From Escherichia phage PP01, in sequence record NC_054930.1: DNA of 64,000 nucleotides. The stretch is one strand, 5' to 3'. Each line of letters starts with the position of its first letter. Position 1 is the first letter of the stretch. Positions 27,315 through 41,359 of the stretch are shown in pieces. The notes under the pieces were generated by a model that had not been told where the DNA came from, made no database searches, and worked only from the letters and a program-made list of their open reading frames with translations. Position numbers and translations under genes: made by a program.

Positions 27315-27621
27315 ATTTACCAATAAATTGAAGCAAATGCTCAACTTTCATGCCATTAACGGAAATCAATTTGTCAATAGAAAAACCTCGCCATGCACCA
27401 AGCTCAACATCAAATACTGGAACCATATCAGTAGATTCTTTCCGAGTTGATTCAGTCAATTTACCGGTTTGCATGGTTGGCATAAAGTCAGCATCACGAG
27501 TACCTTTCATAGTACGAATAGTACCGTCAGACTTTTCAAAAACCACGTTTGAAATACCCATAGACAATTTAGTTTTCAAAATTTCACGAATTGCTACTTT
27601 TTGTTCAGTCGTCAGTTTCAT
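27313..27621 (-). CDS. Hypothetical protein (31.1-like)
   Basis: 102-aa ORF with ATG start. Confidence 0.5.
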   Translation of the reverse strand: MKLTTEQKVAIREILKTKLSMGISNVVFEKSDGTIRTMKGTRDADFMPTMQTGKLTESTRKESTDMVPVFDVELGAWRGFSIDKLISVNGMKVEHLLQFIGK

Positions 27622-27858
27622 TTATTTACCTATCACAGTTTTAATATGGGTTGTTCCACGTTCTTTAAGAGTGGAAAGCAATTTTTGGCATTTTTCTAAA
27701 TCAGATTTCCAACTATACGGTCTATCAATACAAACCCAGTCTGACTTATAATACTGTTTCCATTTAGAGAAAAAATACTTCTTATACTCTACAGCAAATG
27801 AAATGTTCTCGTTGGAATAAGAACTAATTGCTGTGAGTTGTACCAAACGAAATTTCAT
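27622..27858 (-). CDS. Hypothetical protein (31.2-like)
   Basis: 78-aa ORF with ATG start. Confidence 0.5.
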   Translation of the reverse strand: MKFRLVQLTAISSYSNENISFAVEYKKYFFSKWKQYYKSDWVCIDRPYSWKSDLEKCQKLLSTLKERGTTHIKTVIGK

Positions 27859-28439
27859 TATTCACCACAGAATTCGTTGATATTTTCCCAGTTTAACTTA
27901 TTCAAGTTTTTCTTAGGAACATTAAACACTTCAATACCTGCATTTCGCAGAATATCATCCCAGCCAGGTTTATTTTTATCGTATGTTTCGCAATAAACCA
28001 ACTTTTTAATTCCAGATTGAGCTATCGCTTTTGCACAATCTGGGCAAGGAGAAAGTGTTACATACATAGTAGCACCTTCAATTGAAGAACCATTTCGTGC
28101 AGCAAACAAAATTGCATTTAGTTCAGCATGAATTTCATTTTTAGGCGACCATTCAGAATGAGCGCTGCGGTGTTCTTTCGCCAAGACAAAACGATCAGTT
28201 GAACCAAACGATACACATTCGGGCTTATGACCTTGAATGATAGTATGTTTAGGTTTATTCAACAACCAACCTTGCTCGGCAGCATAATCACAGCAATTCA
28301 CACCGCCTGCAGGCGAACCATTATATCCGGTAGAAATAATACGTCCATTCTTTTCAATTACTGCTCCTACCTTCCAGGAGCAACATTTTGATTCTTGTGA
28401 TACTAAATATGCAATTTGAAGTACTGTACTCGCTTTCAT
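27858..28439 (-). CDS. cd: dCMP deaminase
   Basis: 193 aa; zinc-binding motifs HAELNAI and SPCPDCAKAI. Confidence 0.9.
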   Translation of the reverse strand: MKASTVLQIAYLVSQESKCCSWKVGAVIEKNGRIISTGYNGSPAGGVNCCDYAAEQGWLLNKPKHTIIQGHKPECVSFGSTDRFVLAKEHRSAHSEWSPKNEIHAELNAILFAARNGSSIEGATMYVTLSPCPDCAKAIAQSGIKKLVYCETYDKNKPGWDDILRNAGIEVFNVPKKNLNKLNWENINEFCGE

Positions 28440-28774
28440 TTCATAATCACCAGATAAGCAGATTTAGCAGTTTCAACACGATAAATTTCGTGACGAAGTT
28501 TAGTTATACTTTTAATAACAGAACTAATTATATTCTGCCCATCTTTAAAGCGGTTTTTCTTATCAATAAAAATTGCACCAGCCATCTTTTTGTGAAGCTC
28601 AACTGGATACTTCGTCACAATAATAGCATCATACACAGAAGGATGAATACTGTTCACCAGAGTATCGTTCATTAAAGTTATTCTAATGAACTGAGCTGTT
28701 TCAGAATCAAGCGCTCTATGATCGCCAGTATCATTTTCAAGACAATTATCAATTATATCAGTTAAATTCATCAT
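28436..28774 (-). CDS. Hypothetical protein (cd.1-like)
   Basis: 112-aa ORF; ATGA overlap with the cd start. Confidence 0.5.
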   Translation of the reverse strand: MMNLTDIIDNCLENDTGDHRALDSETAQFIRITLMNDTLVNSIHPSVYDAIIVTKYPVELHKKMAGAIFIDKKNRFKDGQNIISSVIKSITKLRHEIYRVETAKSAYLVIMK

Positions 28775-29007
28775 AGTACGCCATACACCCTTTGTGCTTC
28801 AACTAATCCATCAAAATCCAATTTGAGATGTGTTATTTGGTCACCATCACCTGGATTCACAATTACTAATACTGAACGAGGAGTTTCGGTAATAACACGA
28901 ACCGACGTTTCAGGAAATCGTTCAGAAACCTTATTTACCAATTCCTGAGCAAATAGTTTAACTTTTTCTTGGAATTCTTTAACAGTAATTGGATTTTCAC
29001 TTAGCAT
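28771..29007 (-). CDS. Hypothetical protein
   Basis: 78-aa ORF; overlapping start/stop. Confidence 0.5.
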   Translation of the reverse strand: MLSENPITVKEFQEKVKLFAQELVNKVSERFPETSVRVITETPRSVLVIVNPGDGDQITHLKLDFDGLVEAQRVYGVL

Positions 29008-29528
29008 GTTGATCCAAGCTCCTTACTTTCAACGTTTTTAACTAATTTGACAGAAACTAATTCAGCATCTTGAGTAATCATTACCGGACCTTCTTCATAC
29101 TCTTCAAGATATTCTAGAGCTTTCTTTTTAGCTTCTTCCTTCGTATCAGTTTGAGCATAGATATAGAACATACAACCAGTAATACCTACTACTTTCCACT
29201 TAATTTCTTTATCAGCTTTAATTTCAAATTTACTGGCAGAATCATCTTTTTGAACTTCTTCGAAAAAAGAATATTCTAACATATAAGCAATTGAAAATAA
29301 CGGACTAACTTTATAGGATTCGCCCATTACATCAACAGCTTTATACCAACAGTCATCAATTTCGCGTTTAATGCTAATAACATTTTTCGCAGGATCTATT
29401 TTTACTTTAAATGAATTTTCCCCAATAAACTGGGCAATTCGTTTATTAGCCCCACAAGTTTCATTAAAAATATCTTTATATCCAGCTTTAAAGCGATAAA
29501 CCTTATCTTCTTCAAACCATTCGCTCAT
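29001..29528 (-). CDS. Hypothetical protein
   Basis: 175-aa ORF preceded by an early promoter and GAGGAAA SD. Confidence 0.55.
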   Translation of the reverse strand: MSEWFEEDKVYRFKAGYKDIFNETCGANKRIAQFIGENSFKVKIDPAKNVISIKREIDDCWYKAVDVMGESYKVSPLFSIAYMLEYSFFEEVQKDDSASKFEIKADKEIKWKVVGITGCMFYIYAQTDTKEEAKKKALEYLEEYEEGPVMITQDAELVSVKLVKNVESKELGSTC

Positions 29529-29558
29529 TTCAATTTCCTCATTTGTTTTGGTAGAGCT

Positions 29559-29587
29559 ATAATATCACAACTCTACCGTAAAGTAAA
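29559..29587 (-). promoter_or_regulatory. Early promoter
   Basis: Minus strand GTTTACT-N17-TATTAT; -10 lies inside inverted repeat GGTAGAG...CTCTACC. Confidence 0.5.
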
Positions 29588-29590
29588 CTG

Positions 29591-29866
29591 TTAAATTGCT
29601 TTGAATTCTGATGTCTGCGATTCAAAGCGAATATCGCCCTTGATAACTAACTCAGCATCAAGACCGAATACGACAATGATATGCGCGGAACCTGGATACA
29701 GCGTAATGGCGATAGAATCCACCTGGTCTGGAAGCAAAGTGTTCAATACATGAGTCACTTGAGCGTGGATTCGAAGTTCAGCTGCATTATCAAGCTTTTC
29801 AAACATGTTATTAACGATAATTTGACTAAACACTACTTCTACGATTTTAGAATAAGTCGGAAACAT
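29591..29866 (-). CDS. Hypothetical protein
   Basis: 91-aa ORF, ATG start. Confidence 0.45.
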   Translation of the reverse strand: MFPTYSKIVEVVFSQIIVNNMFEKLDNAAELRIHAQVTHVLNTLLPDQVDSIAITLYPGSAHIIVVFGLDAELVIKGDIRFESQTSEFKAI

Positions 29867-29868
29867 AT

Positions 29869-30069
29869 TTACCTCACATAATTTTCTTCAAGCCAATCAA
29901 TAACATCCAACGCATTATCAAAAGTTGAACCATCTACTTTGTCTTCTGTTTCATAATCAAGAACATCTAAACCTACTCTTCCATCAACAATAGGCCATAA
30001 ACAAAATAGATATTTCTTTTCTTTTTCAATTTTATCACAAAGTCGATAAATCTTTTCTATGTTATTCAT
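29869..30069 (-). CDS. Hypothetical acidic protein
   Basis: 66-aa ORF, ATG start. Confidence 0.45.
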   Translation of the reverse strand: MNNIEKIYRLCDKIEKEKKYLFCLWPIVDGRVGLDVLDYETEDKVDGSTFDNALDVIDWLEENYVR

Positions 30070-30258
30070 AAGTTTTCCATGGTAAAGGCAGTTTAGTTTT
30101 CTTTACTGTTAGTTCAACATCAGGATTCTTTTCTCTTAATTTAAGACATTCCTCCCAAGCCCTAATTTCACTAGTGAATACGCAAAATTGCCCATTACTA
30201 GTACCAACTAAATCGCTATTTACAATAACAATAGCCCAAGTTTCATGATGCCAAGCCA

Positions 30259-30259
<1 letters not shown>
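30062..30259 (-). CDS. Hypothetical protein
   Basis: 65-aa ORF; stop overlaps the pseT start region. Confidence 0.45.
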
Positions 30260-31477
<1,218 letters not shown>

Positions 31478-31481
<4 letters not shown>

Positions 31482-31708
31482 TTATTTTTCTCAACCAATG
31501 ATTGAATATAATCATGCAGGTCTTTAGATGCTTTGCCCCACTTATTTTGATATTCATTTTTGAGATTAGCACGTGATTGAGCTAATAAAACATCATTAGT
31601 TGGAGGTAAAGATTCTAATCGTTGAATCTGGCGTCCATAAATCATTGCAGCCATCTCAGATTCATAAATCAATCCTTTGAGATGTTCAAATTGATGCCAT
31701 GAAATCAT
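31478..31708 (-). CDS. Hypothetical protein
   Basis: 76-aa ORF, ATG start. Confidence 0.45.
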
Positions 31709-40978: not shown

Positions 40979-41359
40979 CTACTTTTTGAAAGTTTTTCGC
41001 AAAAGTTCAATGATTTCATCTACATTGTTTTCGTCAACAATGCAGTGAATTTTTGTTACGCCAGAAACCGGGTCTTTGACTTCATCTTTTTCAGAAGTCG
41101 GTTCTTTATACTCACGAAAACAATGAAATTCGTCTTCGCAAATTTCTAAAAGTCTATCTTTGAGGTAAAAATGTTTTCCATTTGCGCATTCAATGTGTTT
41201 TACTGCTTTATATCCATTAGCGACGGAAACTTCTTTAACTTCAAACCATCCGCCATTCTCTCGAATGGCTTTAACTATTGATGAATTAGAACGTGGGCTA
41301 TAATTAATAAATGTATCAATAAGTCTTGGAACAAGTTCATACTTTTTACCGGTATACAT
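40979..41359 (-). CDS. Hypothetical protein (frd.3-like)
   Basis: 126-aa ORF with GAGGAAA SD. Confidence 0.5.
   Translation of the reverse strand: MYTGKKYELVPRLIDTFINYSPRSNSSIVKAIRENGGWFEVKEVSVANGYKAVKHIECANGKHFYLKDRLLEICEDEFHCFREYKEPTSEKDEVKDPVSGVTKIHCIVDENNVDEIIELLRKTFKK

Follow-up and report, generated by a model that had tools for sequence, protein, structure and literature searches.

The interval between cd and pseT in Escherichia phage PP01 is probably the known Tequatrovirus cd.1-cd.5 block of small, dispensable early accessory genes, held between the conserved genes cd and pseT, together with one further gene whose 175-aa product (ORF175) is GoF-like. The 64,000-nt window that we analyzed comes from a Tequatrovirus whose closest sequenced relative is phage JE01 (97.8% identity). 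Six minus-strand genes occupy the space between cd (27858-28439) and pseT (30259-31164), where a preliminary description of the DNA had counted seven; the annotation of JE01 likewise places six coding sequences here, and the remaining minus-strand ORFs of at least 30 aa in this interval are nested within ORF175 or share sequence with pseT in different frames. The same description was right about the tight packing of ORFs of 65-175 aa on the minus strand. Neighboring genes overlap by 1 nt at pseT/cd.5, 8 nt at cd.5/cd.4, 7 nt at ORF175/cd.2 and 4 nt at both cd.2/cd.1 and cd.1/cd, and are separated by 2 nt at cd.4/cd.3 and by 62 nt at cd.3/ORF175.

Five of the six genes are orthologues of T4 cd.1-cd.5, with 92-98% amino acid identity in a tblastn comparison with the T4 locus, and T4 (NC_000866, T4p218-T4p222) carries them in the same position, order and strand. 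The DNA of the two loci is collinear apart from the insertion of ORF175, although the segment from cd.3 to pseT is just 87% identical to T4, compared with about 96% for the flanks. Next to pseT, cd.5 (30062..30259, minus strand) encodes 65 aa as called here versus 75 aa in T4, its start overlapping the pseT stop by 1 nt; it belongs to PF25744 (T4_Y13H) and phrog_2430, is 95% identical to its T4 counterpart and is found at 90% identity or more in 421 phage records. The adjacent cd.4 (29869..30069, minus strand) encodes an acidic protein of 66 aa (pI 4.4) that falls in phrog_2360 without a Pfam family, with 97% identity to T4 cd.4 and 417 records at or above 90%. The 91-aa product of cd.3 (29591..29866, minus strand; PF24051 DUF7355, phrog_1695) is 98% identical to that of T4 and has 886 records, 496 of them at 90% identity or higher. 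On the other side of ORF175, cd.2 (28771..29007, minus strand; 78 aa, PF24005 DUF7320, phrog_1504) is 92% identical to T4 cd.2 by tblastn, the T4 start being annotated as GTG because of a 1-nt difference, and cd.1 (28436..28774, minus strand; 112 aa, phrog_2063, without a Pfam family) is 98% identical to T4 cd.1. Their records number 919 and 613, respectively, with 496 at 90% identity or above in each case.

All six ORFs are real protein-coding genes. The idea that some of them are chance reading frames in AT-rich DNA draws on their shortness (65-112 aa), on the AT-richness of the genome (GC 0.29-0.39) and on the two that have no Pfam family. In each ORF, however, synonymous changes greatly exceed non-synonymous ones. 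The dN/dS ratios of 0.03-0.25 within Tequatrovirus (0.11-0.25 for cd.5, 0.03-0.09 for cd.3, 0.06-0.19 for cd.2) and below 0.45 against other genera indicate strong purifying selection on all six, and they refute this idea. Each ORF also has a PHROG family (E ≤1e-38) and, in other genera, homologues that are 35-60% identical, and we give a chance origin next to no likelihood. The six products are soluble, mostly acidic and free of transmembrane segments. A BLASTP search found no paralogues of the interval genes elsewhere in the window, all-against-all hhalign detected no hidden paralogy among cd.1-cd.5, ORF106 and the two domains of ORF175, and an Rfam scan of the interval gave no credible match.

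The preliminary description had called the whole block uncharacterised. That remains apt for cd.1-cd.5, which are known only as DUF7320, DUF7355, T4_Y13H, phrog_2063 and phrog_2360; Pfam, PHROG and NCBIfam searches return families of unknown function only, and a literature search, its results dominated by papers on Crohn's and coeliac disease, retrieved no functional study or phenotype for these five genes. It does not hold for ORF175, discussed below. We also considered cd.2 as a DinI-like protein and rejected this assignment: the match to Pfam PF06183 is weak (E 0.045; 14.5 bits, the cut-off being 24.2), and a PDB profile search returned no DinI, its best matches being spurious partial ones to designed ankyrin repeats.

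Across genera, cd.2 and cd.3 hold their position and the other slots vary. These two genes accompany cd and pseT in most T4-like genera of enterobacterial phages, and a cd.4 homologue directly follows pseT in Mosigvirus and Dhakavirus. The cd.1 slot is variable, being empty in some genera and occupied by a 330-aa DAHP synthase in several. Gene content differs between genera and even within Tequatrovirus: each of cd.1, cd.4, cd.5 and ORF175 is lacking in some phages with cd and pseT, and PseT homologues occur in 2934 records versus 514-919 for the cd.x genes. Such variability is what is expected of a hyperplastic region.

A regulatory cassette lies at 29526..29587 on the minus strand, comprising a promoter, a stem-loop, a Shine-Dalgarno sequence and an ATG. 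The preliminary description had placed an internal early promoter at 29559-29587, and that site is exact. It reads TTTACT (29587-29582), N17 and TATTAT (29564-29559) with an upstream TG, lines up nucleotide by nucleotide with Pe133295, an early promoter annotated in T4, and is the sole such site that a promoter scan found in an intergenic gap. A 12-bp stem (29577-29550; dG -16.3 kcal/mol) encloses the -10 box, and the Shine-Dalgarno sequence GAGGAAA (29540-29534) is followed by the ATG of ORF175 (29528-29526). Promoter, Shine-Dalgarno sequence and ATG are common to T4, PP01, Mosigvirus and Dhakavirus, and the GAGGAAA with its following ATG is conserved in four genera. The stem is kept in Dhakavirus by compensatory changes (GGTAGAG/CTCTACC to GGTAGGAC/GTCCTACC), and one pair is changed to G-U in Mosigvirus. 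No U-run follows the stem, and a terminator scan of the minus strand gave no match.

Promoter-early stem-loop (PeSL) cassettes have been described from the hyperplastic regions of T4-type phages (Arbiol et al., 2010, PMC2839356; Comeau et al., 2014, PMC4122927), where reporter fusions and inverse PCR were used to examine terminator/attenuator activity and the formation of mini-circles (PMC2839356). A stem-loop overlapping the -10 box is among the commonest published arrangements (PMC2839356, PMC4122927), and the PST/T4 early promoter consensus is TTTACW-N17-TAYWAT (PMC4122927). The cassette found here shares with the published ones a consensus promoter, a stem-loop over the -10 box, a Shine-Dalgarno sequence and ATG at its 3' end, and a position bordering an indel by which close relatives differ. 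It differs from them in being a single cassette, upstream of ORF175, with the cd.2 start codon rather than a second PeSL at the downstream junction, and in that its AT-rich upstream part is taken up by the end of cd.3. Judged by its sequence, the cassette is a PeSL of the published kind and the homologue of Pe133295. Because only one PeSL flanks ORF175, excision between two PeSLs is insufficient alone to explain the indel.

ORF175 itself (29001..29528, minus strand; 175 aa, 20.3 kDa, pI 4.9, phrog_3710) is a gene that T4 lacks, and relative to T4 it forms an exact gene-sized insertion (29007-29525). It lies directly behind the promoter, stem-loop and Shine-Dalgarno elements, the boundary between its presence and absence coincides with the ATG of the cassette, and its end falls on the start codon of cd.2. 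It is present in roughly 60% of Tequatrovirus records; the 301 phage records in which it occurs, T6, RB3 and HY01 among them, are all at least 90% identical. In Dhakavirus and Gaprivervirus the same slot holds a homologue at 30% identity. A phmmer search of 1.84 billion representatives returned no relatives other than near-identical copies; its lone "distant" match, P0006 (1345 aa), is an artefact that arises from summing the weak scores of 17 identical Ig-like repeats. We likewise set aside matches of the family to DUF4288, DOMON and Opr-porin, all far under their cut-offs, and the "putative homing endonuclease" label given in phage PaulHMueller to the truncated ORF175 and to the ORF106 homologue, which finds no Pfam or PHROG support.

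The preliminary description had seen no assignable motifs in the block, and for the 175-aa ORF this is wrong, since PHROG and hhalign comparisons both place it with the GoF/Frd.2 LSm-like family. ORF175 matches phrog_622, the family of GoF and Frd.2, at 3.4e-5 and the goF family phrog_2980 at 4.9e-3, and in the reverse direction T4 GoF matches phrog_3710 at 8.1e-12. By hhalign, ORF175 reaches 67% against GoF and 89% (E 2.2e-6) against the GoF family profile, compared with less than 1.5% in control comparisons. The motifs FE..K.Y.F, N...A...G..PF and E..FF.EV are common to ORF175 and GoF. Similarity of the N-terminal domain to Frd.2 is weaker than to GoF, and none to MotB.1 was detectable. On the basis of these profile matches, we assign the N-terminal domain of ORF175 as a homologue of T4 GoF and Frd.2. 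Since HY01 has both goF and ORF175, the latter is a paralogue.

GoF and Frd.2, along with MotB.1, were described as Tevenvirinae proteins with an LSm-like fold by Kim et al. (2025, PMC12152347), the fold of the GoF family being an N-terminal, bent five-stranded antiparallel beta-sheet of LSm/SH3-like type. An AF2 model of ORF175 built from a 45-sequence alignment (pLDDT 65, pTM 0.50; single-sequence model pLDDT 41) predicts two domains, one N-terminal (approximately residues 1-92) and the other a small C-terminal domain of beta-beta-alpha-beta type (approximately residues 108-153), joined by a linker of low confidence (95-107). At this pLDDT, the N-terminal domain is modeled as four strands plus helices, with no clean five-stranded LSm barrel. 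PDB fold matches of the model are non-significant; the top ones are FeoA SH3-like proteins, and the two-domain model with these matches echoes what has been reported for the GoF N-terminal domain. The 29 BFVD matches at E ≤0.001 carry either no name or that of "Uncharacterized protein", and those with an organism name come mostly from T4-like phages. ORF175 resembles the GoF family in its architecture, a flexible linker joining about 90 aa of N-terminal domain to a C-terminal domain that varies, in its early-gene context, in its confinement to T4-like phages and in its acidity. It differs in forming its own subfamily (phrog_3710/5804), the part that aligns to GoF being approximately 20-27% identical, in residing in the cd-pseT interval rather than at 39-motB or frd-32, in being absent from T4, and in its C-terminal domain, which does not align to that of GoF by hhalign and is predicted to adopt a different small beta-beta-alpha-beta fold.

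We propose early transcription of the block, both within the counter-clockwise unit that runs from pseT to cd and, a second time, from the PeSL promoter inside it; the early timing is drawn from T4's annotation and from the type of promoter. The overlapping stop and start codons could couple translation of successive genes. Recombination at the PeSL and at homologies on gene boundaries may reshuffle gene content, as has been proposed for other hyperplastic regions of T4-type phages. By analogy with what has been proposed for the GoF family, ORF175 would act on RNA, binding or stabilizing transcripts through its putatively LSm/SH3-like N-terminal domain, and the C-terminal domain may confer partner specificity. 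Within that family, stabilization of a reporter RNA was seen only with the GoF D25Y mutant; the wild-type protein and MotB.1 did little (PMC12152347). The five cd.x proteins are likely to aid host takeover under certain conditions, by binding macromolecules of the host or the phage, and would not contribute to growth on E. coli laboratory strains. In a published genome-wide CRISPRi-ART knock-down, T4 cd.1-cd.5 scored "Not Fit", with no fitness effect in the laboratory host.

The preliminary description had offered the interval as a candidate site of host-interaction or anti-defence functions, and this is a reasonable suggestion that comparison across T4-like phages leaves standing: gene order is conserved in part, and the genes have no assigned function, housekeeping or other. 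In T4, pseT and rnlA serve RNA repair and so counter the anticodon nuclease PrrC. The variable content, the early unit, the lack of a knock-down effect in a laboratory host and the neighbors pseT and rnlA fit accessory, host-conditional roles. In its specific form, the suggestion would make at least one of the six products an inhibitor of an anti-phage system of the host, such as a toxin or nuclease directed at RNA. A position beside RNA-repair genes would suit such a protein, as would cassette-like gene content behind an early promoter, small acidic products and knock-downs that leave T4 unaffected in a laboratory strain. None of the six genes, however, matches a known defence or anti-defence family in PADLOC, Pfam, PHROG or NCBIfam, the literature search yielded no cd.x phenotype, and the retention of cd.2 and cd.3 over many genera under strong purifying selection is less typical of anti-defence genes, which turn over fast; we consider this possible but unlikely. 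It is distinctly unlikely, in our estimate, that ORF175 is a previously unassigned fourth branch of the GoF/Frd.2/MotB.1 LSm-like proteins, with a C-terminal domain of its own, that acts from its PeSL-driven slot next to pseT and rnlA to shield phage transcripts or tRNA from host RNA-targeting defence, or that one of the cd.x products is a new anti-defence protein. If ORF175 were such an accessory RNA-protection or antitoxin-like factor, this would account for its retention in only some Tequatroviruses.

The proteins could instead serve the metabolism of nucleotides or RNA ends, as regulators or accessory subunits, working with dCMP deaminase in the dNTP-synthesis complex or with polynucleotide kinase. 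Their presumed tight translational coupling to cd and pseT, the way cd.2 and cd.3 travel with these two genes, and the presence of another metabolic gene, the DAHP synthase, in the cd.1 slot of several genera would all be in keeping with this idea. Yet Pfam and NCBIfam revealed no enzyme or nucleotide-binding motifs, four of the six genes are each lacking in some phages with cd and pseT, PseT homologues occur in far more records than the cd.x genes, and in the early regions of T4 being neighbors says little about function. We regard a metabolic role as very unlikely, and we retain the accessory block with its GoF-like insertion as the likeliest explanation of the interval.

The cd.1-cd.5 block, the family of ORF175 and the promoter/stem-loop cassette are all already known. 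The cd.x genes have stood as hypothetical in the annotation of T4 and hundreds of relatives for decades, and as it is, the finding matters little. What is gained is that the 175-aa "hypothetical protein" of T6/RB3/RB32-type phages becomes assignable to the GoF/Frd.2 LSm-like family, which leads to a concrete, testable RNA-centered hypothesis for its role. A second gain is a map of the fixed (cd.3, cd.2) and exchangeable slots between cd and pseT, which guides screens for host range and counter-defence in these phages.

The interval between the dCMP deaminase gene cd (27858-28439) and the polynucleotide kinase gene pseT (30259-31164) contains six minus-strand ORFs, of 112, 78, 175, 91, 66 and 65 aa, and not the seven that the preliminary description counted in 28436-30259. 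The same six genes are annotated between cd and pseT in Escherichia phage JE01 (Tequatrovirus), the best megablast match (97.8%, full length) among the 768 phage records matched by 27500-31500. Beyond cd and pseT the region is T4-like, with gene 31, rIII, the spanins pseT.2/pseT.3, alc and rnlA. The overlapping starts and stops described earlier occur at five of the seven pseT-to-cd junctions (1-8 nt), whereas gaps of 2 nt and 62 nt separate the genes at the others. The interval ORFs are real genes, with synonymous changes far in excess of non-synonymous ones against both close and distant relatives; within Tequatrovirus, their dN/dS is 0.03-0.25, and that of cd itself is 0.01-0.03.

Five of these ORFs are orthologues of T4 cd.1-cd.5 (92-98% aa identity): cd.1 (28436-28774; no Pfam family, phrog_2063), cd.2 (28771-29007; DUF7320, phrog_1504), cd.3 (29591-29866; DUF7355, phrog_1695), cd.4 (29869-30069; no Pfam family, phrog_2360) and cd.5 (30062-30259; T4_Y13H, phrog_2430). 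The T4 reference lists, from cd to pseT, cd.1 (112 aa), cd.2 (76), cd.3 (91), cd.4 (66) and cd.5 (75), with early promoter Pe133295 placed between cd.3 and cd.2. None of the five PHROG families has a known function, and NCBIfam and PADLOC scans of the interval gave nothing further. The six interval proteins are all predicted to be soluble, and all except cd.1 are acidic. A literature search found no phenotype for cd.1-cd.5. When T4 genes were knocked down genome-wide by CRISPRi-ART, all five were scored 'Not Fit', that is, without significant fitness effect, as were cd and pseT; their prior essentiality is listed there as unknown (PMC11879866, supplementary file 15). These scores fit accessory, condition-dependent roles of cd.1-cd.5, but none of the evidence marks such roles as anti-defence. 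The label 'uncharacterised' holds for these five genes, but not for the sixth.

This sixth gene, ORF175 (29001-29528), is absent from T4 and accounts for one of two clean gene-sized insertions in a BLASTN comparison of the window with T4 (29007-29525 and 31162-31474). The promoter, Shine-Dalgarno sequence and ATG 5' of ORF175 are, by alignment, the very sequence preceding cd.2 in T4 and Mosigvirus, and its 3' end falls on the cd.2 start codon (ATGCTAA). The early promoter proposed at 29559-29587 is real: TTTACT-N17-TATTAT lies at 29587-29559, inside the 62-nt gap. This spacer conforms to the promoter-early stem-loop (PeSL) cassette described in the literature: its promoter matches the PST/T4-type consensus TTTACW-N17-TAYWAT, its stem-loop overlaps the -10 box, and its 3' end carries a Shine-Dalgarno sequence and ATG. 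Compensatory substitutions preserve the stem (29577-29550, dG -16.3 kcal/mol) in Dhakavirus, and in Mosigvirus a G-U pair does so. PeSLs are proposed drivers of cassette exchange in hyperplastic regions (PMC2839356, PMC4122927). The boundary between ORF175 presence and absence falls exactly at the ATG of the PeSL cassette; a second PeSL, however, is absent 3' of ORF175.

In T4 (locus L002, 3730-3772, against window 28975-29007), the ATG behind the PeSL starts a frame, MLLSEKPITVK, that resembles cd.2 of other phages. One extra G (AAAGGAATTCC vs AAAGAATTCC) shifts this frame to a stop after 17 codons, and the annotated T4 cd.2 therefore takes an internal GTG as its start, which gives it another N-terminus (MKNRLLLKEF...). 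The discrepancy may be either a real frameshift or a reference-sequence issue.

ORF175 (phrog_3710) can now be assigned, by profile comparison, to the GoF/Frd.2 LSm-like family. Searching 1.84 billion representative proteins with its sequence alone returned only near-identical copies and one repeat protein, the sole 'distant' match (P0006, a 1345-aa metagenomic protein, E 8e-15). P0006 is built from an Ig-like repeat of ~79 aa, present in 17 identical copies, is probably an assembly artefact, and was rejected as a homologue because its E-value sums weak per-repeat scores. Profile searches recovered 184-aa, 180-aa and second 175-aa subfamilies at 25-30% identity, and the relatives with a source name are from T4-like phages. 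Against PHROG, ORF175 matches phrog_622 (3.4e-5) and the goF family phrog_2980; T4 GoF is itself a member of phrog_622 and also matches phrog_3710 (8e-12). Profile-profile comparison gave 67% probability over 91 columns with T4 GoF, and 89% (E 2e-6) with a five-genus GoF alignment, whereas control comparisons (MotB.2, MotB.1 and every cd.x family) all gave <1.5%. The motifs FE..K.Y.F, N...A...G..PF.[VI] and E..FF.EV are common to both proteins, and in the alignment with T4 GoF, E23 of ORF175 lies opposite D25, the classic D25Y suppressor site. In family members a flexible linker joins an N-terminal LSm/SH3-like domain to a variable C-terminal domain, and RNA stabilisation has been demonstrated only for GoF(D25Y) (Kim et al., PMC12152347).

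A 126-aa minus-strand ORF at 40979-41359 belongs to phrog_622 (E 4.5e-40), the family of T4 GoF, and sits at the T4 frd.2 position; this ORF probably represents Frd.2 and gives the window another LSm-like family member besides ORF175. Given this gene, and the presence of both goF and ORF175 in HY01, ORF175 is an additional paralogue within the family.

ORF175 was recovered from 301 phage records, T6, RB3 and HY01 among them, with no copy below 90% identity; set against the 496 records with cd.1, cd.2 and cd.3 at >=90% identity, this places it in about 60% of Tequatrovirus-type records. Certain copies appear to have decayed. One IMG/VR locus (UViG_2938479101_000011) has ORF175 in two pieces of 92 and 57 aa, a split that could be a sequencing error. 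Another (UViG_2974742932_000001) lacks cd.5, cd.4, part of cd.3 and ORF175, and phage PaulHMueller (L031, 2471-2728) has an 85-aa remnant matching the C-terminal 75 residues at 93% identity.

Across 31 loci from Tequatro-, Mosig-, Dhaka-, Gapriver-, Karam-, Marfa- and Bragavirus and IMG/VR, pseT is followed by one to three small ORFs that vary, cd.5 and/or cd.4 among them, and by cd.3, then by an ORF175-family gene or nothing, cd.2, and finally cd.1, a 330-aa DAHP synthase gene or nothing before cd. ORF175 homologues fill the corresponding slot in Dhakavirus and Gaprivervirus. The stable elements are cd.2 (919 records) and cd.3 (886); cd.1 (613), cd.4 (688), cd.5 (514) and ORF175 are variable. 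The slot adjoining cd in Mosigvirus, Marfavirus and Bragavirus carries the ~330-aa gene annotated as 3-deoxy-7-phosphoheptulonate (DAHP) synthase, of the aromatic amino-acid pathway, in place of cd.1 or beside it (loci L003, 6498-7490; L005, 6522-7514; L007, 6043-7005; also L013, L014 and L024-L026).

The second insertion relative to T4 (31162-31474) corresponds to a 106-aa minus-strand ORF (31161-31481) between pseT and pseT.1, of phrog_2364 (unknown function), with homologues of 51-64% identity at the corresponding place in Mosigvirus and Dhakavirus. The 'putative homing endonuclease' label on its PaulHMueller homologue finds no support in Pfam or PHROG. The cd.3-to-pseT segment (29526-31161) is 87% identical to T4 DNA, against ~96% for both flanks, and on these values is mosaic. 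The window PseT has 82% protein identity to T4 PseT, with 19 of 2934 records at least 95% identical to it; the comparison suggests a rare pseT allele gained by recombination.

The preliminary description was largely right, with a real promoter but six genes. The cd-pseT interval is a typical hyperplastic region built around a PeSL cassette. All its elements belong to kinds previously described, and its interest is therefore low.
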